This document shows positions 5,308-31,864 of a stretch of DNA of 32,000 nucleotides, one piece after another. Every line of letters begins with the position of its first letter. Positions within the stretch are counted from its first letter, which is position 1. A program made the translations under genes and the position numbers. The notes under the pieces were generated by a model that was given only the letters and a program-made list of their open reading frames with translations, had not been told where the DNA came from and made no database searches. Source of the stretch: Halomicrobium mukohataei DSM 12286 (lineage in GTDB: Archaea; Halobacteriota; Halobacteria; Halobacteriales; Haloarculaceae); the NCBI RefSeq assembly GCF_000023965.1, contig NC_013202.1:210001-242000 (forward strand). The letters are read 5' to 3'.

Positions 5308-7074
5308 TTACTGCAGTTCGACGGTGTTGAGGTACGGTCCGCCGACGGAGCTCACCGTGTAGGTGTCCTCGACGACGGCCTCGTTGATCGCTCGAAGCGT
5401 CTCGGCGTAGTCGACGAACACCCACGGAGCCTCGTCGTGGGCGAGCTTGTTGGCCTCCTGGTACATCGTATCGCGCTCGTTCGTGTCGTAGGTCGACTGA
5501 GCCTCCCGGACCAGTTCCATGTACTCGGTGTTGGCCCACGCCGAGACGTTCAGCGTGTTGTACCCGTCAGTGTCGAAGCTGATCCAGTCCTGTCCGTCCG
5601 GAACGTCGTCGAGCGGGACCTGTGGGTCGAGCAGGACGTAGAGGAAGTTGTCGGGATCGGCGTTGTCTGTGTACCACCCGAGGAAGCAGGCGTCGTGGCG
5701 GCCCTGGTCGGTGTAATCGAGATAGGGGCCGAAGTCCGAGAACTGGTTGATCTCGACAGAGAGACCGATGTCCTGCAGATCGGAACGGACCTGGTTGGCC
5801 GTCTGGACCGGACTGGGGTTGTAACCGCGCGGGTTCGAGAACGTCGCTAGCTCGAACTCGAAGCCGTCGCCGTAGCCCGCTTCCTCCAGCAGCGACCGGG
5901 CCTCGTCTTTGTCCGTCGGGTAGGGATCGAGACCGTCGTTGTGTCCCAGCACGTCCGGCGGCAGCGGCTGGGAGGCCTGGGTGGCAAAGCCCTGGTAGAT
6001 CTGGTTGACGATGGCCTCGGTGTTGACCGCGAGCGAGACCGCACGCCGGACTCGGCGATCCCGGAACGGCTCCATCCGTTCCATGTTCATCGCCATGTAG
6101 CCGACGTTGATTCCGTTCTTGCGCAGCAGCGTCGCCGTGTCGCTGCTGTCGGCCCGCTGGAAGCCGTCGGAGTCGAGGTTGTCGGTGACGTGTGACGCGC
6201 CGTTGATCACGTCCTGAACGCGCGTGCTGTTCTCGGAGATGGTCTTGAAGACGACAGAGCCGACGTTCGGACCGGGACCCCAGAACGACTCGTTGGCCGT
6301 CAGGCGGATCCGGTCGTTGGGGTTGTCCAGCTGGTCGAACGCGAAGGGGCCGGTCCCGATCGGTTCGGTGCCGAGCCCGACCTGCGCGTCCGGGCTCGCG
6401 TCGAAGCTCTCGATCTGGGCCTTCGAGAGCACCGCCGCCGCGAACATCGCGAGGTTGCGCAGGAAGGGCGCGTAGCGCTGGCTCAGTTCGATCGTCAGTT
6501 CGCCGTCCTGGCTGGCGTCGACCGATTCGATCCAGTTGCCGAGCGTGAAGGGGCCGTATCCGGATCGGTTGGCGTCGCCGAGGTAGTAGTCGTATTCGGG
6601 ATCGGTAAAGCGCCGGAAGGTCGCCTCGAAGTCCTCGGCGGTGAACGGCTCACCGCTGTGGAAGGTCACGTCCTCCCGAAGCGTGAGCGTCGCCGTCGTC
6701 CCCTCCAGCGAGTAGTCGGTCGCGAGTCCGGCTTCCAGTTCGCCCCCGCTGCCGGCGGCGAACTGGATCAGCGTGTCGAAGATCTGGTTCGTCACCTTCG
6801 CGACCTCGCCGCTCGTGGTCTGCTGGGGGTCGTAGTTCTCCGGGTGGTCCCCACGGGCGTAGACGAGCGTCTGGTCGCCGGCAGTGTCGTCGCCGCCGTC
6901 GTCACCTTCGGCGGTGGTCGCGGCCTCGTCGGTCTCCATCTGTTCGTCGCCGCCCTCTGTCGGCGTCTCGTCGTCACCGTCGTCGCCGGCACAGCCGGCG
7001 AGCGTTACCGTGACGGCACCAGCACCGGCCGCCCTGAGGAAGTCGCGTCGTCCGAGTGGATCGTCAGACTGCAT
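5308..7074 (-). CDS. ABC transporter substrate-binding protein, family 5 (DppA/OppA-like), Tat lipoprotein
   Basis: The ORF is 5308..7089. It has a Tat motif (GRRDFLRAAGAG), a lipobox (LAGC) and an acidic Asp/Glu/Thr linker, followed by a long periplasmic-binding-protein-like body. The start is placed at the second Met (MQSDD, 7074) because a TATA-like ATTATAG lies 24-30 nt upstream of it. Confidence 0.88.
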   Translation of the reverse strand: MQSDDPLGRRDFLRAAGAGAVTVTLAGCAGDDGDDETPTEGGDEQMETDEAATTAEGDDGGDDTAGDQTLVYARGDHPENYDPQQTTSGEVAKVTNQIFDTLIQFAAGSGGELEAGLATDYSLEGTTATLTLREDVTFHSGEPFTAEDFEATFRRFTDPEYDYYLGDANRSGYGPFTLGNWIESVDASQDGELTIELSQRYAPFLRNLAMFAAAVLSKAQIESFDASPDAQVGLGTEPIGTGPFAFDQLDNPNDRIRLTANESFWGPGPNVGSVVFKTISENSTRVQDVINGASHVTDNLDSDGFQRADSSDTATLLRKNGINVGYMAMNMERMEPFRDRRVRRAVSLAVNTEAIVNQIYQGFATQASQPLPPDVLGHNDGLDPYPTDKDEARSLLEEAGYGDGFEFELATFSNPRGYNPSPVQTANQVRSDLQDIGLSVEINQFSDFGPYLDYTDQGRHDACFLGWYTDNADPDNFLYVLLDPQVPLDDVPDGQDWISFDTDGYNTLNVSAWANTEYMELVREAQSTYDTNERDTMYQEANKLAHDEAPWVFVDYAETLRAINEAVVEDTYTVSSVGGPYLNTVELQ

Positions 7075-7097
7075 GCCCCAAAATGACAATAGAACAA

Positions 7098-7104
7098 CTA
7101 TAAT
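7098..7104 (-). promoter_or_regulatory. TATA-like box (ATTATAG on the minus strand), candidate internal promoter for the binding-protein gene
   Basis: This is the only AT-rich patch in the 85-bp spacer between the ATPase stop and the binding-protein start. Its spacing fits a leaderless transcript starting at 7074. Confidence 0.35.
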
Positions 7105-7174
7105 GGTATGTGCGGGCCGACTACCGTTCGAGTCCGATCGGTAGCGACGTAGTTACCACACGCGTACCGAGCGC

Positions 7175-9892
<2,718 letters not shown>

Positions 9893-10091
9893 CTGTCAGA
9901 TACTCTCCCGTGTACCGTATTACTATCGTGGCGTTTCGGACAGTAGACTCTCCCTACCAGTCGGTCACCGAAGCGAGAGGAGTGGCTTCGAGTCGGTCGA
10001 CGATCGCCCACGGTCGTGGTTGATAACTGAAACGAGCCCGGCAGCTAGCAGGCAGCGACTACTATTTGCGTGTCGCTACCACGGTCGAGCA

Positions 10092-10610
10092 ATGAGTGAC
10101 CCAGCCCAGCGAGCGAACACTCCCTTCGACCGCGTCGTCGGCCCGTGGGAACGGGTGATCGACGAGATGCACGCGACGGCCGAACGACACCGCGAGGACG
10201 GAAAACGGGTGATCGACTGTCATCCCGGCGACGTGGCGACGCTCACCGGCGACCCCCGGACGGACGCGGCGTCGACCGGCGACATCGAGCCGGACCGCCG
10301 CGTCGGCCTCGACGCCGTCCTCCCGGGATCGGAGTTCGAGGCGGTTCAGGCGGTGCTGAGAGATCGGGACCCGGACCGCGTCGAGGTGTTTCGGGCGCGT
10401 GGCAACGGCCTCGTCTTCCTGTTGCTCTCGCTCTCGTGTGGCGACAGCGTCGTCTTGCTCCCGCTGTACTACGAGCGCGAAGACGCGGACGCGCTCCGAT
10501 CGATCGCCCGTGACAGTGGGTTCCCGGTCCACGTCCGACCGCTGACCGACGGCGAACGCGTGCGCGTGACAGTCGACGATCCCGAGCTCTGTGTGCCGTC
10601 TCGCTCGTAG
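10092..10610 (+). CDS. Hypothetical protein (172 aa), haloarchaeal-type acidic protein
   Basis: Internal ATG (MSDPAQRAN...) of the 9729..10610 ORF. Upstream of it the frame runs through the divergent promoter and the ATPase start. Codon third positions are GC-rich. I recognised no domain. Confidence 0.5.
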   Translation: MSDPAQRANTPFDRVVGPWERVIDEMHATAERHREDGKRVIDCHPGDVATLTGDPRTDAASTGDIEPDRRVGLDAVLPGSEFEAVQAVLRDRDPDRVEVFRARGNGLVFLLLSLSCGDSVVLLPLYYEREDADALRSIARDSGFPVHVRPLTDGERVRVTVDDPELCVPSRS

Positions 10611-10751: not shown

Positions 10752-11432
10752 TCACGTCTCCTCACCAACGTCGATATCGTGGCCACACTCCGGGCAGGAC
10801 ACCTCGTCGTGGCGCAGCGCCGCGGAGTGTTCGCGAACGTCGCGCATCACTTCCGAGATCTGGTCTTCGGTCTCCAGTTCCTCCTCGACGCTCAGTTCGA
10901 CGCCCTCGACCTCCAGCAGAAACTTCGCGACCTCCGTGGCCTCGTACATCACGTCGTCGAGTTCCTCGGCCGTGAAGAAGTCACACATCGCACCATAGAG
11001 GAACGTCGCGCCGGCCTTGCGGACCTTCTCCTCGAAGGACGCGCGGGCCTGATTGACCGCCTGTGGCGTGTACGTGTCGGTCATGAACGGGACCAGTTCG
11101 GGGAGGTTCTCGCCGATCTTGGTCATCTCGACGCCGGTCTCGGTCCGGAAGTCCGCACAGAGGCGGGCGATCGCCCACTCGCGGGCGGTGACGTAGGTCC
11201 GTTCCCGCAGGAACTCGTTGGCCCGGTCGTAGGTCCCGCCGTCGATCTTCTTGAAGCGGTCGTACTTGCGTACGTCGGCCGGAACGTCCGTCTCCAGAGA
11301 GTCGCCGTCGGCAGCGTCGAGGGACTCGTCGTCGGCCGGCTCGGACCCGTCGGCCGCGTCCGGTTCGGTCGACGACGGCTCGGCTCGTGAGCGCTGTTCG
11401 TCGGTCTCGTCGGGGGACGCGCCGTCTGTCAT
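10752..11432 (-). CDS. Conserved hypothetical protein (226 aa) with an acidic N-terminal tail and a C-terminal CPECG motif
   Basis: Internal ATG (MTDGASPDETDEQ...) of the 10752..11573 ORF. The Arg-rich upstream extension looks non-coding. A T5 TATA-like element lies 25-29 nt upstream of this ATG. Confidence 0.6.
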   Translation of the reverse strand: MTDGASPDETDEQRSRAEPSSTEPDAADGSEPADDESLDAADGDSLETDVPADVRKYDRFKKIDGGTYDRANEFLRERTYVTAREWAIARLCADFRTETGVEMTKIGENLPELVPFMTDTYTPQAVNQARASFEEKVRKAGATFLYGAMCDFFTAEELDDVMYEATEVAKFLLEVEGVELSVEEELETEDQISEVMRDVREHSAALRHDEVSCPECGHDIDVGEET

Positions 11433-11447
11433 GCCCCACCCTCTGTT

Positions 11448-11470
11448 CCGGCAGTGAAAAAGTCTGCCGG
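11448..11470 (-). promoter_or_regulatory. Palindrome CCGGCAG-N9-CTGCCGG whose loop holds a T5 TATA-like box (ACTTTTTCA on the minus strand)
   Basis: The T5 run (11457-11461) lies 25-29 nt upstream of the ATG at 11432. The usp genes in this window show the same spacing. Confidence 0.4.
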
Positions 11471-11517
11471 CGTCCGCCCGGGCCGCGCGGAGCCGAACAC
11501 GACGCCGGGACAGACGC

Positions 11518-11545
11518 CGCCACTTCGGGGAGGTGGCTTTTTCAG
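11518..11545 (+). promoter_or_regulatory. Palindrome GCCAC-N9-GTGGC followed by a CTTTTTCA TATA-like box for the usp gene
   Basis: The T5 run (11538-11542) lies 26-30 nt upstream of the ATG at 11568, suggesting a leaderless transcript. Confidence 0.4.
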
Positions 11546-11567
11546 GAGTGCCTGCATTGAGCCGTCT

Positions 11568-11936
11568 ATGCACGTCCTACTCGGAGTCGGGGGCAGCGAT
11601 CTCTCCTATCAGGCCCTCGACGAGACGATCGAACGAGCACGCGAGGCCGGCGACGAGGTGACCGTCGCCGTCTTCGACGGCCACGAGACAGACGCGGGCG
11701 GAGACGAAGTCCAGGAACGGGTCCGCGAGCGGCTCGACGAGACCGGCTTCGAGGCCGAGATCAGACTGCTCAGCGGCGATCCGGGAAGTCGACTCGTCGA
11801 CGTCGCCGAGAGCGAGGGGTTCGACCGGATCGTCCTGGGCAGCGGCGAGCGGTCGACGCTGGGCAAGATCCAGCTCGGTTCGATCGCCGAGTTCGTCCTG
11901 CTGAACGCACAGACCCCGGTGACGCTGATCCGATGA
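11568..11936 (+). CDS. Universal stress protein (UspA family)
   Basis: 122 aa starting at MHVLLGVGGSD. The C-terminal G..G(x9)GS-type motif (VLGSGERSTLGKIQLGSIAEFV) is typical of Usp domains. Confidence 0.8.
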   Translation: MHVLLGVGGSDLSYQALDETIERAREAGDEVTVAVFDGHETDAGGDEVQERVRERLDETGFEAEIRLLSGDPGSRLVDVAESEGFDRIVLGSGERSTLGKIQLGSIAEFVLLNAQTPVTLIR

Positions 11937-12457
11937 CGCGACGCTATCCAGACGAGCCGGCCGGTACGTTCCCGGCACCGCCCCGCCAGGTGACCGACCG
12001 TGAGGGCCGTTCGATCCAGTTGCGACGCGCGGACGCCACCGACCGGACGGCGCTGATCGAGATGTACAAGCAGTTCGATCCCGCCGACCGCGCCCAGGGC
12101 ATCCCGCCGGCCCGCGAGACGGCCATCGAGCGGTGGCTGGAGAACATCCTCGATACGGACCGGTACAACGTCGTCGCGAGCCACGAGGGCGATCTGGTCG
12201 GCCACGCGACGCTGGTCCCCGACGATGACGACGGGTACGAGCTGGCGATTTTCGTCCTCTCGGCGTACCAGGGAGCGGGAATCGGGACCGAACTCGTCGA
12301 GACGCTGCTGGGCCACGGCCAGTCCGAGGGGATCGAGCAGGTCTGGCTCACCGTCGAACGGTGGAACGATCCCGCGATCGCTCTCTACCGGAAGGTCGGC
12401 TTCGAAACGTCGAACAGCGAGCGGTTCGAGCAGGAAATGGCGATCCGGCTCGCTTGA
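11933..12457 (+). CDS. GNAT family N-acetyltransferase
   Basis: 174 aa with acetyl-CoA binding motif A (YQGAGIGTELVETLL) and a downstream ALYRKVGFE motif. Its ATG overlaps the usp TGA (ATGA). Confidence 0.85.
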   Translation: MTRRYPDEPAGTFPAPPRQVTDREGRSIQLRRADATDRTALIEMYKQFDPADRAQGIPPARETAIERWLENILDTDRYNVVASHEGDLVGHATLVPDDDDGYELAIFVLSAYQGAGIGTELVETLLGHGQSEGIEQVWLTVERWNDPAIALYRKVGFETSNSERFEQEMAIRLA

Positions 12458-15471: not shown

Positions 15472-15903
15472 CTACTCGCCGATAACCCACTTCTCGGAGT
15501 ACTTCTCGCCGCAGGGACAGACCGCGTAGGCGTGGATCACGTCGCCGTCCTCGTAGATGCCGCCGACCTCCTCGTTCTGTTCCTCGGCGAAGGCGAAGAC
15601 GAACTTCGCCGTGTGGTTCTCGTCGGGTTCCTCGTCCTCGTTGGGACAGACACCGCCGGTCAGATCGTCAGCGATCTCGCCGTCGGTGGCCATCGCCTCG
15701 CGGGCCAGTCCCATCGGGTCGATGCCGGTGGCCGACTGGAAGGCGCTGCGCCCCTGATCGCCGTCGATCACCAGCACCATGCCGTCCTCGACATCCTCCG
15801 CGTACTCCGCGAGGGCGTCGGCGTTGCCGACCGCGTCCTCGTGCAGGAAGAAGGCCACGTCCTCGATGCGCTCGCCCGCCAGGAATTCGGTGCGCTTGCT
15901 CAT
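15472..15903 (-). CDS. Conserved hypothetical acidic protein (143 aa) with a C-terminal CPCG motif
   Basis: A clean 143-aa ORF with GC-rich third positions and haloarchaeal acidic composition. I recognised no catalytic motif. Confidence 0.6.
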   Translation of the reverse strand: MSKRTEFLAGERIEDVAFFLHEDAVGNADALAEYAEDVEDGMVLVIDGDQGRSAFQSATGIDPMGLAREAMATDGEIADDLTGGVCPNEDEEPDENHTAKFVFAFAEEQNEEVGGIYEDGDVIHAYAVCPCGEKYSEKWVIGE

Positions 15904-15995: not shown

Positions 15996-16157
15996 ATGGT
16001 CTTCGAACTGATTGCCGGATTCGTCGCTCTCGTCGCCGCGTCGTACATTGGGACGACGATGGCCCTCCGAGGCTACTTTGGCGCGACGTCGTTCGACCGA
16101 GTTCAGCGGCGAGAGTCGGGGGAACCTAACGACGATGATTCGTCAGCGGACGACTGA
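15996..16157 (+). CDS. Candidate small membrane protein (53 aa): one TM helix plus an acidic tail
   Basis: ATG at 15996 and TGA at 16155-16157 give MVFELIAGFVALVAASYIGTTMALRGYFGATSFDRVQRRESGEPNDDDSSADD. It is below the ORF-track cutoff. Third positions are GC-rich, and an AT-rich atctatt lies about 25-30 nt upstream. Confidence 0.35.
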   Translation: MVFELIAGFVALVAASYIGTTMALRGYFGATSFDRVQRRESGEPNDDDSSADD

Positions 16158-16266
16158 GGGTTTCCGATGCAGTCGTGTGCAGTTGGCATTCGCGCGAACG
16201 AGCGGTCCGAAGGACCCGGCAGTTCGCGCGATTCACTCCGAGCGCGCCGAAGGCGCGGCTCGGAGG

Positions 16267-16336
16267 TGTTTTTGTACTAAATTTTTGCGAGCGGGGGTGC
16301 CCGCAGCGAAGCGAGGACACCCTCCGAAGTAAAAAT
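16267..16336. terminator. Bidirectional T-run/hairpin terminator zone between the convergent small ORF and arlJ
   Basis: The plus strand has TTTTT at 16269-16273 and 16282-16286. The minus strand has TTTTT (A5 at 16331-16335) immediately after the arlJ stop. GC hairpins such as GCGGG-ggtg-CCCGC lie between them, and AAATTTTT / AAAAATTT form complementary ends. Confidence 0.5.
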
Positions 16337-18085
16337 TTAGATGCCGATAAACTGCGTCACCAGCCACTTGGTGGCGATCGAGGTGACGCTGCCGATCCAG
16401 GCCAGCAGGACGAAGTGCATGTAGGTGTTGCCCTTGTGGCCGCCGTCGACGGTGCGGACCATCAGCGCCGACAGCATCGCGCCGAACATGATGATGATGA
16501 TCAGCAGGAACTCGATCAGCGGGATGTTGTAGACGCTGGTGTTGATCAGGGTGCTGGCGTCGAACCCGGCGTTCGAGGAGAGGTTCAGCGACATCGACGA
16601 GAGGATGTTGACGACCTGCAGGCCGATGAAGAAGGCGAACGTCGACGCCGCAGTGATACCGTACAGGAGCCCGATCAGGGTCGTTGCGGCCTGGTTGCGC
16701 TGAGTGCGCAGCGCCTGGATCTCGTTCATGTTGGCCGCGATCAGTTCGCCCAGCAGTTTCGGCGAGCCGCCCATCTCGCGGCCGATAAGGTACATCTCCG
16801 AGAACGTCTGAATCAGGTACGATCGGCAGTCGGCGGTGAAGTATCGCCAGGCCTCGGCGGGCTCGATGCGCATGTTGAGTCGCTTGTAGAGGTCGTCGAC
16901 GTTGGGCGACAGCGCGCCGAAGTCCTTCTCTCGGAGCGTTCGCAGGACCATCGAGGTGGTCGACTGCTTCGCGCCTTCGGTCGCGCCCAGCGCGCGGATG
17001 AAGCTCGGGAACTGGTCGTCGCGACCCTTGATCCGCTGTTCCTCCTGTCGGATGACGATCCCGGGAATCAGCAGTGGCGTGATCGGGATGGCGGCGTACA
17101 TCGAGAGCGGGACCCGATCGAGGAAAAAGAGGAGGTCACCCACCGTGATCGGTGAGACGCCGAACATCCCCCCCAGCGAGATGAAGATGAGGACGGCGGT
17201 GAGAGCGACACCGACGTAGGTCGCCTTCTCGATGCGGTTCTCGACGTCGGAGGGGTAGTCGTCGGGGTGGAACCACACCGGATCGTAGGGGGCCATCGAG
17301 CGGATCGCGAGGTAGAAGCCAGACTGGACGAAGATGTACATGACGATGACGGCGCTGACGGTCATGGTCGGGTCGGTCCCGGTCAACACCGGCAGGACGA
17401 CGGCGAACACGAGCGCGAACGTCATCGAGAGGACCATCGACAGGTAGAGGTCCTTCATCACTTCGAGGTTGTCCAGCGTCCCCTCGTACACCGTCGTGTA
17501 GTTCTGGATGATCTGCTCCTGTTCGCTGAGGAGGTAGTCCTCCAGGGACTGGCCGGCACCGAGCGTGTACGCGAGTCGGTCGAGGAAGTCAGAGACCGCC
17601 GCCGAGGGGACTTCCTTGGCGCGGCGGCGGCAGGCGTCGTCGAGGCTCTGGTTCCAGGTGTCGACCAGCTCGACGATCCGGTGCATCTCGTTTGCCAGTT
17701 CGCCGTACTCCTCTTCCTGTGCCAGCGTCCGGAACACCTCCATGCGGTCGATCTTCGTCGTCGCCAGCACCGTCATGTGGGTGACCAGCAGGTGAAAGCG
17801 GTTGTTGAGCTGGCTGCGACGCTGTGAGATGAGGATCTTGGGGTAGAAGATCGCCGCGGCCATCGCCAGGAACCCCAGCATCGGGATCGGGGCCCGGATC
17901 ATCATCGGCAGATCGAGCACCAGCGCGGCGACGGCGCTCAGCAGGAAGAAGGCAATCGCCGGCAGCAAAATGAAAAAGAGGTACCGCTGCAGCGGAATGT
18001 GCATCTGCCGGTACGCGTCCAGCAGGTCGTCGAAGATCTCGGACAGCGTCAGGTTCAGGGAGTTTTCCGCTTCGTTGGATGCCAT
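16337..18085 (-). CDS. arlJ: Archaellum assembly membrane protein ArlJ (FlaJ)
   Basis: 582 aa, polytopic, with duplicated T2SS-F/TadC-like architecture. It is the last gene of the arl accessory operon, and its ATG shares one base with the arlI stop. Confidence 0.9.
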   Translation of the reverse strand: MASNEAENSLNLTLSEIFDDLLDAYRQMHIPLQRYLFFILLPAIAFFLLSAVAALVLDLPMMIRAPIPMLGFLAMAAAIFYPKILISQRRSQLNNRFHLLVTHMTVLATTKIDRMEVFRTLAQEEEYGELANEMHRIVELVDTWNQSLDDACRRRAKEVPSAAVSDFLDRLAYTLGAGQSLEDYLLSEQEQIIQNYTTVYEGTLDNLEVMKDLYLSMVLSMTFALVFAVVLPVLTGTDPTMTVSAVIVMYIFVQSGFYLAIRSMAPYDPVWFHPDDYPSDVENRIEKATYVGVALTAVLIFISLGGMFGVSPITVGDLLFFLDRVPLSMYAAIPITPLLIPGIVIRQEEQRIKGRDDQFPSFIRALGATEGAKQSTTSMVLRTLREKDFGALSPNVDDLYKRLNMRIEPAEAWRYFTADCRSYLIQTFSEMYLIGREMGGSPKLLGELIAANMNEIQALRTQRNQAATTLIGLLYGITAASTFAFFIGLQVVNILSSMSLNLSSNAGFDASTLINTSVYNIPLIEFLLIIIIMFGAMLSALMVRTVDGGHKGNTYMHFVLLAWIGSVTSIATKWLVTQFIGI

Positions 18086-25506: not shown

Positions 25507-27504
25507 TCACAGAATCGGCACAAGACGGGCGATCAGCCCGACGACGTCGAACGCGAACGGGCCGTACGCGAAGTATTCCACCGACGCCAGTGAGAGATAG
25601 ACGGTCGTCGCGCCACCGGCCACCGCCATCCCGATAGCGACGGATCGGGGTGAGACGCGATCGGGGGCGACGGTCCGACCGACGACGAGGACGGCAGCGA
25701 CCGCCGCGACACAGAGCCCGAACAGCGCGTGGAACTGGATCGCCTCCCCGAGTGCCGGATCGAGGACGCCGAGGACGACCGCCGCCAGAGCCGGCCCGAC
25801 CAGGATCGTGCCGGCGTAGACACCAGCGATCGTCCGGGGAGCCCCGGAGATCGCCTCCCGAACCGCAGGGAGACGGAAGGGACAGTACGACGCCAGTGCG
25901 ATCGCTGGCAGCAGGTACCGGACGGTGAGCTGGCTGAACAGCGGGAGCCGAGGGAGATAGACGAGCGTGAGCACGACGGCGTAGCTCGCGACGAGCAGAT
26001 CCGTCTGGCGTCGCGGACCCAGCCGGGAGAGGGCGACGCCGTGTCGCCGGATGTGAACGGCGGCGACCGCCGGGAGTGCGAGGAGCGTCCCGACGATCGG
26101 CGTCGACTCGACGACCGAGAGATCGATCGTCTCGTAGTCGTTGATTCCGGACAGGGACGCCGAGTTGCCGCGTCGGACGAAGATCTCCCAGAGCCGCTCG
26201 TGTTCGCCCGCGGCTGCAACGCCGTCGGAAACCGCAGCAACGGCGTAGTTACCGATGAATACGAGTTGCGCCAGGACCGTCTCGGCGAGCGTCGAGAGCG
26301 CGAAAAGCGGCGACAGGAGTCCGAAGAGTTCGTCGAGGAGTGTCCGCTGTGTCTCGTCGCCACCAGTCGGGTCGGCGTCCGCGTCGCCACCGGCCGTTCC
26401 CGAAGCCGCGTCACCGTCGCCCGCTTTGGCACCATCGGTCGGTGCGAGTTCGACGCTCTCGGGCCCGACGTTCGGGAGGAGTCGTGGCGGACGGAGCGGA
26501 TTCCCGTTGATGAGCACGTTCGTGACGGCCATCGGGAGCACGGAGAGCACGAAGATCCCCCCGACGACGGCGAGACGACGGCGGCTCTTCCGGGGTTCGG
26601 TGAGGAAGTCGACGGCGAACAGCGCGGCCGTGAGGAAGAACCCCTCGAAGGCGTGGACCCACGCGACCAGCCCGAGCGCACCGTACGCGAGGCCGTGTGC
26701 CACGTAGCTCGCCCGGCCGTCCAGTTGCCGGCTCCGTGCGAACGCGAACACGGACCAGAAGACGAGCGCCGTGACCAGCACGTGGCGCTTCGGAATCGTC
26801 GCCCAGAAGCCGACCGGCGTCGCGAGCGCGAGGGCGACCCCCGCGGCGACGGCCACGCGCCGGTCGTGGAACGCACCGACGAGCCGGTAGCACGACACCG
26901 CGACCACTCCAGCGGCCGCGAGCGTACTGAGCTGGAGCGCGACCAGCGGCAGCTGGGATCGATCGAGCGCCGTCGCGAGAACCACCGCAGCGGCGAACCA
27001 GGCGCTCGCGACGGCGACGGCGACGAGACGGAGCCACCGTCGATCGAAGCGGGCGGCCAGCCGTCGCCCGAGGCCGACGACGCCGAGCGCCCACCCACCG
27101 GCGAGCACGAGGCGAGGCGGCGCGACGACGCTGGCACCCTCAAGGAGCCAGAGGAATGGCAGCGCGGCCACGACCTGCCCGTAGTTGCGGGCGTAGAACC
27201 GACCGCCGTACTCGTGGAGGCCGGGCTGGGTGCCCAGCGTCAGCGAGTACTGGAAGTCCGGCGGTGTCATCGCGAGTCGGCCGTCCGCCAGATTCGCGAC
27301 GGCGTTGGCGATGGGGTACGTGTCCGTGATGAAGAAGCCGACCCGCCAGGACAGCGCTCCCAGTAACACGACGCCGAGCCACAGCGTCAGGCCGATCGCG
27401 TCCCCGAAGACGAACTGTCCCGCGCGGTCCGCGTACCGGGAGAGACGGTCCGACCAGACCGAACGGAACTGGGCGTCGACGCCGCTCGATCGATCACCGT
27501 TCAT
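25507..27504 (-). CDS. Large polytopic membrane protein (665 aa, about 15-16 hydrophobic segments), function unknown
   Basis: A long ORF with regularly spaced hydrophobic helices and a central acidic Gly/Asp loop (..GDGDAASGTAGGDADADPTGGDE..). Its ATG overlaps the stop of the upstream gene (ATGA at 27501-27504). Confidence 0.7.
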   Translation of the reverse strand: MNGDRSSGVDAQFRSVWSDRLSRYADRAGQFVFGDAIGLTLWLGVVLLGALSWRVGFFITDTYPIANAVANLADGRLAMTPPDFQYSLTLGTQPGLHEYGGRFYARNYGQVVAALPFLWLLEGASVVAPPRLVLAGGWALGVVGLGRRLAARFDRRWLRLVAVAVASAWFAAAVVLATALDRSQLPLVALQLSTLAAAGVVAVSCYRLVGAFHDRRVAVAAGVALALATPVGFWATIPKRHVLVTALVFWSVFAFARSRQLDGRASYVAHGLAYGALGLVAWVHAFEGFFLTAALFAVDFLTEPRKSRRRLAVVGGIFVLSVLPMAVTNVLINGNPLRPPRLLPNVGPESVELAPTDGAKAGDGDAASGTAGGDADADPTGGDETQRTLLDELFGLLSPLFALSTLAETVLAQLVFIGNYAVAAVSDGVAAAGEHERLWEIFVRRGNSASLSGINDYETIDLSVVESTPIVGTLLALPAVAAVHIRRHGVALSRLGPRRQTDLLVASYAVVLTLVYLPRLPLFSQLTVRYLLPAIALASYCPFRLPAVREAISGAPRTIAGVYAGTILVGPALAAVVLGVLDPALGEAIQFHALFGLCVAAVAAVLVVGRTVAPDRVSPRSVAIGMAVAGGATTVYLSLASVEYFAYGPFAFDVVGLIARLVPIL

Positions 27505-27986
27505 GGACGGACCTCGACGGTTTCGTCGGCCTCGAACACCGTCTGGTCGTACTCGAAGCTCTGGACGCGAACGGTGATCGTGGCTCGGTACCGCTGTTCG
27601 GTGACGCCGTCGGGATCGAGGCCGCGATCGCGCATCCCGAGACGGACAGTCTCGGACTGGCCGCCGGAGAGCAGTCGGGTCGTGGTGCGATCGACGCCGA
27701 GTTCGGGCACCGACACCCGGTAGACGAGCCGTGGCCGCCCCTCGATATCCGAGACGGAAATGGTCGCGTCGGGGATCCGCAGGTAGTCGACGCCCGTGCC
27801 AAAGCGGCCGCCCTCGACGACCAGCGCGCTCGTGTCGAGCCGTTCGACCGTGGCGTTGGCCCGCCCGTCGCCGACGGTCGTCGGATTCCGTGCGGTCGCG
27901 TCGACGACGCCGAACGGACCGGTCAGAAGGAGCGTGACCGCGACGACGGCGACGGCGAGCCGTTCGAGACGGGCCACGGAGACCAT
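27501..27986 (-). CDS. Signal-anchored small protein (161 aa), function unknown
   Basis: Internal ATG (MVSVARLERLAVAVVAVTLLLTGPFG...) of the 27501..28106 ORF. It has an N-terminal hydrophobic anchor followed by a beta-rich-looking domain with one N-A-T sequon. A TATA-like CATTTAATG lies 26-34 nt upstream. Confidence 0.55.
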   Translation of the reverse strand: MVSVARLERLAVAVVAVTLLLTGPFGVVDATARNPTTVGDGRANATVERLDTSALVVEGGRFGTGVDYLRIPDATISVSDIEGRPRLVYRVSVPELGVDRTTTRLLSGGQSETVRLGMRDRGLDPDGVTEQRYRATITVRVQSFEYDQTVFEADETVEVRP

Positions 27987-28032
27987 GCTAACAGAGCTAC
28001 CGCTACGACCGACATTAAATGATTCGCACCAC

Positions 28033-28593
28033 CTACAGCTGGACGCCGTCCTCGCCCTCGACGGCCGCCAGCAGTTCCGCGATGGAGTCGTCGGGCGAAC
28101 AGCCACTCGTCTTGACGAGCTCTCGGAGACTCTCGGGCGGGTAGCGGACGGGAACGTTCGACTCGCTCAGGAGAATGCCCAGCACCTCCTCGACCGGCGT
28201 CGAGCCGTCGACCTGACGGGCGTACCACAGCATGAGACTCTCGAAGACGGTGATGATGTCGTTCGAGACCATCCGCTGTTGGCTCACGGTGCCGTCGAAC
28301 TTGGCCGTCACGTCGAAGCCGTAGCGGGAGTTCCCCTCGTCCATGGTCTCCGCGAGCCACTCGTGGACCGTCGCGTCGTCCAGCGTCGGCTCGGGCTCTG
28401 GCGTCGGTTCGGGCTCGGGCGTCGGGTCCGGTGCGGGACGGGACGGCGTCGTCGAATCCGTCCGAACGTCGGGCGAGACGACGTACCTGCCCTCGTCGAT
28501 CTGCTCGACGTGGTCGTCGTCGGAGATGTCGAGCTCTTCGGGCGAGAGGATCTTCCCGTCTTCCGGATTGGGCTCGTCGGGCCCCTCAGACAT
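28033..28593 (-). CDS. Acidic hypothetical protein (186 aa) with a Pro/Glu linker
   Basis: A clean ORF with an acidic N-terminus, a PAPDPTPEPEPTPEPEPT linker and a globular-looking C-terminal half. A TTATATTT box lies 22-29 nt upstream of the ATG. Confidence 0.6.
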   Translation of the reverse strand: MSEGPDEPNPEDGKILSPEELDISDDDHVEQIDEGRYVVSPDVRTDSTTPSRPAPDPTPEPEPTPEPEPTLDDATVHEWLAETMDEGNSRYGFDVTAKFDGTVSQQRMVSNDIITVFESLMLWYARQVDGSTPVEEVLGILLSESNVPVRYPPESLRELVKTSGCSPDDSIAELLAAVEGEDGVQL

Positions 28594-28654
28594 GTGTAAC
28601 AGTGTGACACACTCAAATATAAGTCCGTCGCCCCGCGGCGGCGCTGGGCGCTGA

Positions 28655-28683: not shown

Positions 28684-29385
28684 TTAGAGGCTGACCGCAG
28701 ATTTCCCGGAGAGGGACTCGGGCACGACCAGCGTCGCCGTCGTCTCGCCACCGGCCTGCGTGTTCAGCTTGACCGTTGCGGTCGAACCCTCGCCGAGGTC
28801 GGTATCAATCTCGAAGTTCGAATTGGTATTACCATCGCTGTCTTCAACTGTTCGACCGTCGTTGCTGTTGGACACGTCAGTGGTTTCGAAGGTCATCGTA
28901 GCGCGGTCAGCAGGATCGTTGAGCACAGAGCTCTCCGTTATCGAATTGTCGTCATCTTGGAACGTTCCGATTCCGAACGCACCACCATGGTTACTCGTAG
29001 AAAAGTCATCTCTCGTCGCTGCGACGATGTTGTACGTCCCATCGCTGGAGACCCACTGTGCAGTGGTGGTCTCCAGATCGACGTTGTCGGCACCTGGAGC
29101 CTTCTTAACGGTCAGCGTCACGCGAGTAACCTCCGCCGTGTCACTACTAGCTGTGGTGTCATCGATGATTCCGTCACCAACTGCGTCGACGACTTGCAGT
29201 CGGTTGGTGACCTGCGCACTGGACTGTTCACCGCTCTCTTCGGCACTGGACTGCAGGAACCCGGCGGTGTTGATCAGCACACCGGCGGCGATCGCCGCGA
29301 CCAGGACCATCGCGATGAACACGATCAGCGTCCCGATCCCGACCTGCCCGCGGTCGTTTTCCTCGTCGTTGAATAGTTCGATCAT
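28684..29385 (-). CDS. Archaellin (FlaA/FlaB = ArlA/ArlB family), copy 1
   Basis: 233 aa. It has a class III signal peptide and hydrophobic N-terminus ([45 protein letters not shown]), nearly identical to known haloarchaeal archaellins. Confidence 0.95.
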
Positions 29386-29702: not shown

Positions 29703-30389
29703 TTAGAGGCTGACCGCAGATTTCCCGGAGAGGGACTCGGGCACGACCAGCGTCGCCGTCGTCTCGCCACCGGCCTGCGTGTTCAGCTTGACCGTCGCAG
29801 TCGATCCCTCGGAGAGGGAGTCACTAACGAGTGCATCATCGTTACCCCCATCAACAGTTGCACCGCCACTGTTGGTAGAACTCAACTGAGTAGTCTCGAA
29901 GGTCATGGTAGCGCGGTCCGCAGGATCATTAAGCACGGTGCTGTCAGAGATAGAAGCGTCATCATCTTGGAATGTCCCGGTCAAGAATGCCGCATCGTGG
30001 TTGGTGTTGTCGAATCTAGTGTCCTCGACAATATTGAAGGTCCCACCGTCGGAGACCCACTGTGCGGTAGTAGTTTCCAGATCGACGTTGTCGGCACCCG
30101 GAGCTTTCTTAACTGTCAAGATGACACGAGCCACCTCAGCGTCGCCGCTCGTTGAGGAGTCAGCATCGATGATTTCTTCACCAACTGCGTTGACGACTTG
30201 CAGTCGGTTGGTGACCTGCGCACTGGACTGTTCACCGCTCTCTTCGGCACTGGACTGCAGGAACCCGGCGGTGTTGATCAGCACACCGGCGGCGATCGCC
30301 GCGACCAGGACCATCGCGATGAACACGATTAGCGTCCCGATCCCGACCTGCCCGCGGTCGTTTTCCTCGTCGTCGAATAGTTCGATCAT
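29703..30389 (-). CDS. Archaellin (FlaA/FlaB = ArlA/ArlB family), copy 2
   Basis: 228 aa. The N-terminal ~70 aa and C-terminal ~31 aa match copies 1 and 3, and the centre is divergent. Confidence 0.95.
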
Positions 30390-30701: not shown

Positions 30702-31352
30702 TTAGAGGCTGACCGCAGATTTCCCGGAGAGAGACTCGGGCACGACCAGCGTCGCCGTCGTCTCGCCACCGGCCTGCGTGTTCAGCTTGACCGTCGCAGT
30801 TGAACCTTCAGTGAGGTCCGCATTGACAGTGCTGACCACTGTATTCCCGTTATTATGTGAATCAGTACGGAACGTCATGGTTGCGCGGTCAGACGGATCA
30901 TTCAGGACATCACTGTTGCCGATCGAATTATCGTCGTCCTGGAACGTCGAGATTGCGAAGGTAGCATCTCCCGAGGTCCCTCCAGTGCCTGAGGCTGGCT
31001 CACTAACGACATTGAATGTCCCATCAGAGGAGACCCACTGTGCAGTCGTAGTCTCGAGGTCGACGTTGTCAGCACCTGGAGCCTTCTTGACGGTAATGTT
31101 GACCGTCGTCACCTCGAAACCACTGTCATCGACAATGTCTTCACCAACTGCGTTGACGACTTGCAGTCGGTTAGTGACCTGCGCACTGGACTGTTCACCG
31201 CTCTCTTCGGCACTGGACTGCAGGAACCCGGCGGTGTTGATCAGCACACCGGCGGCGATCGCCGCGACCAGGACCATCGCGATGAACACGATCAGCGTCC
31301 CGATCCCGACCTGCCCGCGGTCGTTTTCCTCGTCGTCGAATAGTTCGATCAT
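30702..31352 (-). CDS. Archaellin (FlaA/FlaB = ArlA/ArlB family), copy 3
   Basis: 216 aa with the same conserved termini as copies 1 and 2. The centre is shorter and divergent, with an N-I-T sequon. Confidence 0.95.
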
Positions 31353-31579: not shown

Positions 31580-31864
31580 CTAGCTATCGTAGGCGACGAG
31601 GCTGTACATCACGAACAGGAACCCGAACGTCGTCAGCCCGCTGTTGACCAGCAGGAGCGACCGGACGCCCTCGAAGTCGTTGACGAACGCGCTGATCATC
31701 GTCGCGGCCGCACCGGCGACCGCCAGCGCGAACCCAAGCGAGAGGTGCAACATCGCGTCACGGGACGTCTGGACGTACGCACGCATAGCCATCCCGACCA
31801 TCGTGAGTCCGGCGACGACGAAGACGAGCGTAGAGATAGCGTACAGGAGTTCTATCATCGGCAC
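31580..31864 (-). CDS. Small membrane protein (94 aa, 3 TM), function unknown
   Basis: An ORF with three clear hydrophobic helices. An AT-rich box (tttattag on the minus strand) lies upstream. The start could instead be the second Met (MIELLY). Confidence 0.55.
   Translation of the reverse strand: MPMIELLYAISTLVFVVAGLTMVGMAMRAYVQTSRDAMLHLSLGFALAVAGAAATMISAFVNDFEGVRSLLLVNSGLTTFGFLFVMYSLVAYDS

Follow-up and report, generated by a model that had tools for sequence, protein, structure and literature searches.

Archaellins, the filament subunits of the archaellum, are glycosylated by AglB-type oligosaccharyltransferases in archaea other than the one considered here, Halomicrobium mukohataei. In Haloferax volcanii, AglS, a dolichyl-phosphate-mannose mannosyltransferase, completes an N-linked pentasaccharide outside the cell, and the surface glycoproteins concerned include archaellins. 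In Pseudomonas aeruginosa group IV, the pilin gene pilA is followed by tfpW and tfpX. A preprint on this system (bioRxiv 10.1101/2020.04.19.049825) describes TfpW as an O-arabinosyltransferase of pilin with a glycosyltransferase C (GT-C) fold; it has an essential acidic motif in its first loop, uses a lipid-linked sugar, modifies pilin Ser/Thr residues on the outer face, and interacts with TfpX, a small accessory protein. The same preprint presents PglL/TfpO (PilO) as dedicated to the O-glycosylation of type IV pilins, with tfpO adjoining pilA. In archaea, O-glycosylation is listed among enigmatic pathways (PMC8305020), and when we searched the literature for an archaeal O-glycosyltransferase, nothing came up but unrelated papers on eukaryotes and plants. 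O-linked archaella do exist, because the archaellin of Methanospirillum is mainly O-glycosylated according to a review (PMC10117864). Here, we describe two adjacent genes, designated B and C, in a 32,000-nucleotide stretch of the H. mukohataei DSM 12286 genome (contig NC_013202.1, positions 210,001 to 242,000 of the forward strand). We call this whole stretch the window, and all coordinates refer to it. Archaeal protein O-glycosylation is an acknowledged gap for which the B-C pair gives a testable candidate: we consider the chances evenly divided that B and C form a glycosyltransferase dedicated to filament subunits, probably O-linked, and this is our best reading of the locus overall.

Genes B and C lie on the minus strand with a third gene, designated A, and the trio is flanked by three archaellin genes on one side and by cheY-cheC-cheD-arlCE on the other. 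The listing of open reading frames (ORFs) in the window contained all three genes at the positions reported in a preliminary description of this locus (28033-28593, 27501-27986, and 25507-27504 for A, B, and C, respectively). Two of the archaellin genes and all four of cheY, cheC, cheD, and arlCE were confirmed by Pfam matches; the translation of the middle archaellin gene (29703-30389) had the same N-terminal sequence as the two confirmed ones. The features of B and C were as follows.

25507 to 27504, minus strand: gene C, a 665-residue polytopic membrane protein with a GT-C fold, from an unnamed haloarchaeal family (ORF, AlphaFold2, Foldseek, and hidden Markov models [HMMs] of homologues).
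27322 to 27324, minus strand: codon of Asp61 in FFITD, the proposed catalytic acid/base (invariant in 36 of 36 homologues; placed from the model).
26782 to 26805, minus strand: codons of W234 to H241 (WATIPKRH), a basic loop between two membrane helices and proposed binding loop for the donor phosphate (invariant residues).
26341 to 26505, minus strand: codons 334 to 388 of C, a variable, disordered, acidic Gly/Asp-rich loop (predicted local distance difference test [pLDDT] values and composition).
27501 to 27986, minus strand: gene B, a 161-residue single-pass membrane protein and proposed partner subunit of C (ORF and model).
27501 to 27504, minus strand: ATGA, in which the stop codon of B overlaps the start codon of C, translational coupling (sequence; conserved in other loci).
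28014 to 28019, minus strand: TATA-like box TTTAAT, about 28 nucleotides upstream of the B start, the putative promoter of B-C (sequence).

A word-indexed search found 169 homologues of the C protein, which were confined to Halobacteria and, with few exceptions, carried the annotation "hypothetical"; C was 94% identical to an H. katesii protein. An exhaustive HMMER search of 1.84 billion representatives (clusters at 50% identity) indicated that the family is compact, with 471 clusters at an E-value of ≤1e-3, 283 of them at ≤1e-30. The window C protein had no Pfam match and passed no Pfam or NCBIfam cutoff; its sole NCBIfam match, to the putative glycosyltransferase family LA_3751/2 of Leptospira, was weak (E 0.03). 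Among 36 diverse C homologues, 16 matched LA_3751/2, with E-values as low as 3e-10, and 6 matched Pfam PMT_2 (dolichyl-phosphate-mannose protein mannosyltransferase-like), 2 of them above the gathering score. PMT_2 was the only Pfam family reached by any of the 36, and the matched region corresponded to approximately residues 195 to 330 of window C, a stretch that includes WATIPKRH. When C, B, and A were compared to PDB sequences, by sequence as well as by profile, all matches were at chance level, and the hits to malate synthase, cytochrome oxidase III, a CS1 fimbrial subunit (E 0.06), and uL15 were dismissed.

An AlphaFold2 model of C, which was built on the homologue alignment, had a pLDDT of 82.3 and a predicted template modeling score of 0.84. 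It contained about 16 membrane helices, which also made up the entire C-terminus, and the acidic loop at residues 334 to 388 was disordered (pLDDT below 50 for residues 342 to 388), in keeping with the 15 to 16 hydrophobic segments and the acidic Gly/Asp loop reported in the preliminary description. The best PDB match of the model in Foldseek was ArnT (5f15; E 5e-4, probability 1.0, TM-scores of 0.38/0.45), and the next matches were AglB (3wak), STT3, AftA, DPY19, EmbA/B, ALG9, PglB, Pmt1/2, and PimE. These GT-C matches had Foldseek probabilities of 0.7 to 1.0, and all matches at about 0.9 or above were GT-C enzymes. Because the TM-scores to solved GT-C structures were modest (0.3 to 0.45), the similarity is at the level of fold rather than family. 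Judged from the fold and the remote HMM matches, C is very probably a GT-C glycosyltransferase, as its resemblance to lipid-linked glycosyltransferases of this class had led the preliminary description to suggest, and its family would then be a GT-C family that is new and unnamed, with a candidate partner encoded in trans. We regard it as extremely unlikely that C belongs to the ordinary secondary transporters or permeases and lies in the cluster by chance. Many membrane helices and the absence of a named domain in window C itself would suit such a protein, but transporters and receptors matched the model at Foldseek probabilities of ≤0.35 and TM-scores of about 0.1, compared to the high-probability GT-C matches, and the homologues matched PMT_2 and putative glycosyltransferase HMMs. 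Thus, the confident transporter match that would have spoken against a glycosyltransferase was not found.

The alignment and the model placed the invariant Asp61 directly after the membrane helix at residues 36 to 50. In ArnT, PglB, AglB, and PMT, the catalytic acidic residue likewise follows the first membrane helix. Arg-rich segments at the N-terminus and in the loops of the model suggest that Asp61 faces the outside. In WATIPKRH, residues W234, P238, K239, R240, and H241 were, like Asp61, invariant across the arl-linked and pilin-linked members of the family, and the motif was specific enough to be used as a genome-scan pattern. The alternation of Arg-rich loops suggests that this short loop is also on the outer face and, because conserved basic residues are unusual there, the loop is predicted to bind the donor phosphate.

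The model of B (pLDDT of 84.6) consisted of a membrane helix at residues 3 to 22, a short linker, and an immunoglobulin-like (Ig-like) beta-sandwich at residues 41 to 160. This agreed with the N-terminal anchor and beta-rich ectodomain described previously, and the N-A-T sequon (N-X-S/T) that had been reported for B was located at 27849-27857. B had no Pfam or NCBIfam match, and Foldseek searches with its model returned generic Ig-like domains only, with no specific function. In an HMM survey of 80 genome loci, 68 had B immediately ahead of C. The stop codon of B overlapped the in-frame start codon of C as NTGA in 56 of 66 loci, so the overlap on which co-translation of the pair had been proposed is kept family-wide; in the remaining B-C loci, the C start was mostly within a few bases of the B stop. 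Because the coupling is conserved and C has no soluble domain, B is a candidate subunit that gives an extracellular domain in trans, and we think it likely that C works together with the 161-residue B protein.

Two other readings of the B gene were set aside. A longer GTG start at 28106 is mechanically possible, but more than 60 homologues begin at the ATG position. In addition, B was considered as a pilin-like protein, but its N-terminus does not have the class III signal-peptide pattern of the neighboring archaellins and pilins. In many B homologues, the sequon is part of a G-x-G-N-[AV]-[TS]-V motif about 15 to 20 residues after the membrane helix, and in Haloarcula the motif reads G-D-G-T-A-S-V. 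B may be glycosylated itself, or the motif may be structural.

It is very unlikely, in our view, that B and C are a noncatalytic scaffold or chaperone for the extraction, processing, or assembly of subunits, as has been proposed for TfpY-type proteins, and that sequon loss in the neighboring archaellins is an unrelated lineage trait. Such a role would account for the synteny with filament-subunit genes and for an Ig-like domain in B that carries no enzymatic signature, and one report describes TfpY-like pilin accessory proteins that aid assembly without glycosylating (PMC11841053). It would not account for the Asp residue after membrane helix 1 and the basic outer loop, which are invariant at about 35% identity, the pattern of an active GT-C enzyme. 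We also know of no protein with a GT-C fold that is purely structural, and we counted this against a scaffold.

To return to the glycosyltransferase reading, the genomic context of the pair points to filament subunits. A genome scan with the C alignment yielded the 80 loci, which fell into three contexts (24, 7, and 49 loci). In the first context, the order was archaellin(s)-DUF7500-B-C-cheY-cheC-cheD-arlCE..J, and the 24 loci were from Haloarcula (including Haloarcula hispanica, which is genetically tractable and shares this layout), Halomicrobium, Halovenus, Salinibaculum, and Halapricum. In Haloarcula hispanica, C is AEM58256.1 (HISP_13585) and the B gene ahead of it encodes 160 residues. 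In the second (7 loci from Natrinema, Natronomonas, and Salinirubellus), arlJ..F on the opposite strand was followed by archaellin(s)-[B]-C-DUF7500, in which the DUF7500 proteins were bona fide members. The remaining 49 loci had no arl or che gene within 10 kb of C. In 22 of these, one to four PilA-type pilin genes (PF07790, Pilin_N, conserved N-terminus) were on the same strand directly upstream of B-C, and several further loci had pilin genes nearby on the other strand or side. Other loci in the third context were among glycan-synthesis genes, namely genes for a polyprenyl-phosphate glycosylphosphotransferase, a GT4 protein, a sugar nucleotidyltransferase, an AglJ-like GT2 protein, and a DUF2298/YYY membrane protein.

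In a rough neighbor-joining tree, the archaellin-linked C proteins of the first two contexts formed one clade and the pilin-linked ones fell in others. Both kinds were present in one genome in H. katesii (L001 and L064), Salinibaculum (L011 and L079), and Natronomonas (L036 and L027), and C paralogues were only about 35% identical to each other. What emerges is a set of paralogous B-C pairs that usually accompany type IV filament-subunit loci, and the link to filament subunits that had been proposed for H. mukohataei was borne out by synteny with both archaellin and pilin genes. The preliminary description had named homologues unlinked to arl or che genes as a sign against its proposal; formally, 49 of the 80 loci are of this kind, but they are mostly beside pilin or glycan-synthesis genes, and such paralogues widen the glycosyltransferase hypothesis rather than kill it.

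Several other observations were made on these loci. B-C was directly downstream of tandem pilin arrays, mostly of one to four genes and of six at most, at L064 of H. katesii, L016, L021, L038, L042, L078, L059, L061, and L070, among others (positions of about 6800 to 9400). Within the archaellin-linked clade, a C subclade from Halorientalis and Halovenus (L015, L029, L046, L049, and L065) had neither B nor filament genes nearby; its members were head-to-head with a polyprenyl-phosphate glycosylphosphotransferase gene (Bac_transf) and near GT4 and nucleotidyltransferase genes, which suggests recruitment into a different glycan pathway. A phosphoribosyltransferase gene downstream of C in 20 loci was considered as part of an arabinose-type donor pathway, as for TfpW. 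This candidate was rejected as a housekeeping neighbor because the protein is of the ordinary adenine/hypoxanthine type.

The three archaellins of the window, which are the proposed substrates, were poor in sequons, as indicated below.

28684 to 29385, minus strand: archaellin of 233 residues (PF01917), with no N-X-S/T sequon versus about 3.0 expected by shuffling.
29703 to 30389, minus strand: archaellin of 228 residues (translation, shared N-terminus), with no N-X-S/T sequon versus about 2.4 expected by shuffling.
30702 to 31352, minus strand: archaellin of 216 residues (PF01917), with one sequon (N85-I-T) versus about 3.2 expected by shuffling.

The idea that a modification module would serve N-glycosylated archaellins, which was the original rationale for linking these genes to glycosylation, does not hold at this locus, where the three adjacent archaellins have a single sequon between them. 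Among 46 archaellins from the genome loci that contain C, 24 had no sequon, and the mean was 0.76 versus 1.84 expected. For a control set, metagenome contigs were scanned with an archaellin alignment and the loci were then classified; loci were assigned to the class without B-C if they had DUF7500 or cheC/cheD and at least 3 kb downstream and B-C was absent. The sequon counts in the two classes were as follows.

Metagenome loci with B-C: 9 loci and 13 archaellins, with 0 sequons in ten archaellins and 1, 1, and 2 in the others.
Metagenome loci without B-C (DUF7500 or cheC/cheD present): 12 loci and 23 archaellins, with 3 to 11 sequons.

The counts did not overlap (Mann-Whitney U = 0; p = 5e-7 per archaellin and 1e-4 per locus), and these p-values overstate independence because the lineages are related. 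A contrast came from within the family to which Halomicrobium belongs: in Halosimplex, which has pilin-linked B-C paralogues (L019, L040, L050, and L076) but none in the arl cluster, the archaellin had four sequons. In a rough archaellin tree, sequon-poor C-linked archaellins were found in at least three places, and the group from the second context nested among sequon-rich proteins. In aligned sequon columns, the Asn residue was replaced and the hydroxyl residue was kept in C-linked archaellins: N-[IVL]-T became E-L/I-T, N-V-T became T-T-T or Q/D-A-T, and N-M-S became D-L-T/S. The Ser content of C-linked archaellins was 13.1%, compared to 9.4% in those without C.

Additional observations concern the archaellins themselves. 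A D-L-E-T-T-T stretch in the window archaellins exemplifies a Thr residue kept at a former sequon. A second, divergent archaellin type in Salinibaculum (N-terminus AQSGIGTLIILIA) had sequons above the shuffling expectation. Two metagenome contigs carried five tandem archaellin genes each with zero sequons (L154, 821-5713; L161, 1733-5825), and both contigs end before the B-C position. The archaellins of Haloarcula marismortui have, unusually, no canonical sequon, yet both stain weakly as glycoproteins (PMC10117864). B-C offers a candidate explanation for this Haloarcula puzzle, as the presence of the pair tracks sequon loss.

The sequon pattern also bears on two further explanations. One of them is that C elaborates AglB-attached N-glycans on surface proteins in general, adding a terminal sugar from a dolichyl-phosphate monosaccharide outside the cell as AglS does. 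The GT-C fold and the PMT_2-type remote matches fit this equally well; AglJ-like GT2 and other glycan genes are near C paralogues, the pilins beside paralogues keep normal sequon numbers, and many B homologues have a sequon near the membrane helix. We nevertheless find this explanation doubtful, since archaellins almost without sequons would offer little or no N-glycan to extend, and a general envelope enzyme would not be expected right after filament-subunit genes repeatedly in separate clades. The other explanation, which we judge unlikely, is that B-C modifies a nonprotein molecule, such as a membrane lipid, a lipoglycan, or an envelope polymer at the filament base, and that its position reflects co-regulation or inheritance. 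This would leave unexplained both the near-perfect inverse relation with archaellin sequons and the separate paralogue clades directly downstream of archaellin or pilin genes. It does draw support from the best structural match, the lipid A-modifying ArnT, and from the AftA, Emb, and PimE matches, as well as from the Halorientalis subclade in which C, without B, is beside polyprenyl-phosphate glycosylphosphotransferase and GT4 genes; moreover, no glycan has been demonstrated on Haloarcula archaellins (PMC13357602).

Under the reading that we prefer, B and C would be a two-subunit membrane glycosyltransferase dedicated to type IV filament subunits, in this case the three upstream archaellins. 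On the outer face of the membrane, C would use a dolichyl-phosphate-linked sugar donor, whose phosphate may be held by the K239-R240-H241 loop, while Asp61, where the first outer loop begins, may act in catalysis; the sugar would then be transferred to an exported archaellin. The overlapping stop and start codons would allow B to be made in a fixed ratio with C. As a separate chain, B would contribute the extracellular domain that is built into most GT-C enzymes, and it may present the substrate. The modification would most likely be O-linked, because the archaellins lost the Asn of nearly all their sequons but kept Thr/Ser at the same surface positions, and it would stand in for the AglB-dependent N-glycosylation of other haloarchaea.

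Several findings weigh against this proposal. As noted above, the window C protein passes no family cutoff and its structural matches are modest in score. About one quarter of the C loci have neither archaellin nor pilin neighbors, and some C-linked archaellins keep two to three sequons (L007, L011, and L045). The sequon contrast is confounded by phylogeny, as the C-linked clusters belong to related lineages. The pilins beside paralogous B-C pairs were considered as a second sequon-depleted group and proved not to be one (0.96 sequons versus 1.23 expected). A glycan on these archaellins is a prediction from sequence patterns. For Haloarcula marismortui, whose archaellins are atypical 450-residue forms, a 2026 cryo-electron microscopy study of the archaella at 3.0 Å notes that experimental evidence of glycosylation is lacking, and it describes no glycan density (PMC13357602).

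With these points included, synteny and the sequon pattern leave it evenly poised whether the B-C pair acts on the filament subunits encoded upstream. From the same two lines of evidence, it is a more tentative suggestion that the linkage is O-glycosidic and substitutes for N-glycosylation. It is also possible, though we would not presume it, that B-C is the first identified archaeal protein O-glycosyltransferase, acting on Ser/Thr of archaellins, and that its paralogues act likewise on PilA-type pilins. As part of that possibility, AglB-dependent N-glycosylation of filaments may have been replaced in the Haloarcula/Halomicrobium lineage and in the second type of arl cluster, which we put forward with comparable caution. 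If these proposals are true, N-linked and O-linked coats are interchangeable on archaeal filaments, and a new GT-C family is defined whose partner subunit is encoded in trans. If only the fold assignment holds, two haloarchaeal "hypothetical protein" families gain a functional class and DUF7500 is placed as an archaellin-cluster gene.

DUF7500 is the family of gene A. The preliminary description had found no motif in any of the three genes, which stood for B and window C, neither of which has a Pfam match, and did not stand for A. It had also treated the trio as one module. The features of A were as follows.

28033 to 28593, minus strand: gene A, an acidic cytoplasmic protein of 186 residues, DUF7500 (PF24332).
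28615 to 28622, minus strand: TATA-like box TTATATTT, 22 nucleotides upstream of the A start (sequence).

Gene A matched DUF7500 over residues 11 to 178 with an E-value of 7.3e-68 and a score of 228.8 bits (cutoff, 27). It has 43 Asp+Glu and 11 Lys+Arg residues and no membrane helix. The PAPDPTPEPEPTPEPEPT linker of A, which had been likened to the (EP)n linker of ArlCE, was found in the sequence, as was the long linker of ArlCE. DUF7500 proteins have a conserved motif at the N-terminus (ILSPEELDI..DEHV.EIDEGRYVVSPD), which is followed by a Pro/Glu-rich linker that varies and then by a domain of about 100 residues; D112, F117, W123, and Y124 were invariant in the alignment. In Halosimplex halophilum (L081), the order is archaellin-DUF7500-cheY-cheC-cheD-arlCE with no B-C, and DUF7500 follows the last archaellin gene in many metagenome clusters that do not have B-C. 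Because DUF7500 is present after archaellin genes without B-C, it is separate from the glycosyltransferase pair; it is a general component of haloarchaeal archaellin/chemotaxis clusters, and the trio is not a single module. Our literature search for DUF7500 found no paper. Several DUF7500 proteins carry the UniRef label "DIX domain-containing protein," which is unverified and was not relied on; if correct, it would hint that these proteins polymerize head to tail.

The AT-rich boxes that had been assigned to A and B were both present. Runs of at least six AT-only bases were rare, as there were just 28 in the entire 32-kb window, and here they were 22 to 31 nucleotides upstream of the A, B, cheY, arlCE, and DUF7521 starts. 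The scan found no such run ahead of C. Because AT boxes precede A and B and none precedes C, A is probably one transcription unit and B-C another, both with leaderless transcripts.

Other genes in and around the cluster were also recorded. The DUF7521 gene of the window (31580-31864, minus strand) encodes a small membrane protein and has its own AT-rich box. In several genera (L081, L082, L163, and L164), the archaellin genes are preceded by a conserved upstream block that consists of cheW, a KaiC/ArlH-like ATPase gene (PF06745 and DUF7125), an HTH_20 regulator gene, and DUF7521. Downstream of arlJ in the window are DUF7529, DUF5806, and DUF5807 genes at 9729-10610 (plus strand), 10752-11573 (minus strand), and 15472-15903 (minus strand), respectively. 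The window also contains a GNAT acetyltransferase gene (11933-12457) and an oligopeptide ABC transporter block (5308-9892). In some Halovenus and Salinibaculum clusters (L007, L011, and L013, at about 16000-17000), there are two arlF-like matches in tandem.

When B-C is compared to the systems introduced above, each resembles it in part, and the bacterial TfpW/TfpX system comes closest. PglL/TfpO proteins are O-antigen-ligase-like (Wzy_C) and transfer preassembled oligosaccharides, whereas no such domain was found in C by the Pfam scan. AglB, STT3, and PglB (GT66) share the GT-C fold and are among the structural matches of C (3wak, 6s7o, and 3rce). In contrast to these enzymes, C contains no WW or WWD in its sequence and thus no WWDYG, has no STT3 Pfam match and no soluble C-terminal domain in its model, and has likely substrates that do not carry Asn sequons. 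AglS, likened to C by description, is also a haloarchaeal multipass glycosyltransferase and works on the outer face from a dolichyl-phosphate-linked sugar donor, but it extends an N-linked glycan and its gene is in an agl rather than an arl cluster, and the archaellins described here are almost without sites. PMT (GT39) and the PMT_2/ArnT-like enzymes (GT83) have the GT-C fold in common with C and, like it, an acidic residue where the first outer loop begins; their donor is a polyprenyl-phosphate monosaccharide, as is predicted for C. The acceptor of ArnT is lipid A, which, to our knowledge, archaea do not have. C differs from PMT in that it is below the PMT_2 threshold, has no MIR or PMT Pfam match, has Thr60-Asp61 instead of an Asp-Glu pair, and has about 16 helices rather than 11 to 13.

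TfpW, compared by description, has about 11 membrane helices and ends in a periplasmic TPR domain, whereas C has about 16 helices and no TPR match in the Pfam scan. The small partner also differs from TfpX, as B is upstream of C, is translationally coupled to it, and has an Ig-like sandwich. Furthermore, TfpW serves a bacterial pilus, whereas the system here belongs to an archaeal archaellum and has a predicted activity. The two systems share a large GT-C gene and a small accessory gene downstream of a filament-subunit gene, an arrangement seen here at 31 archaellin-linked and at least 22 pilin-linked loci, and if B-C does glycosylate filament subunits, this likeness would represent convergence with the bacterial pilin glycosylation systems.

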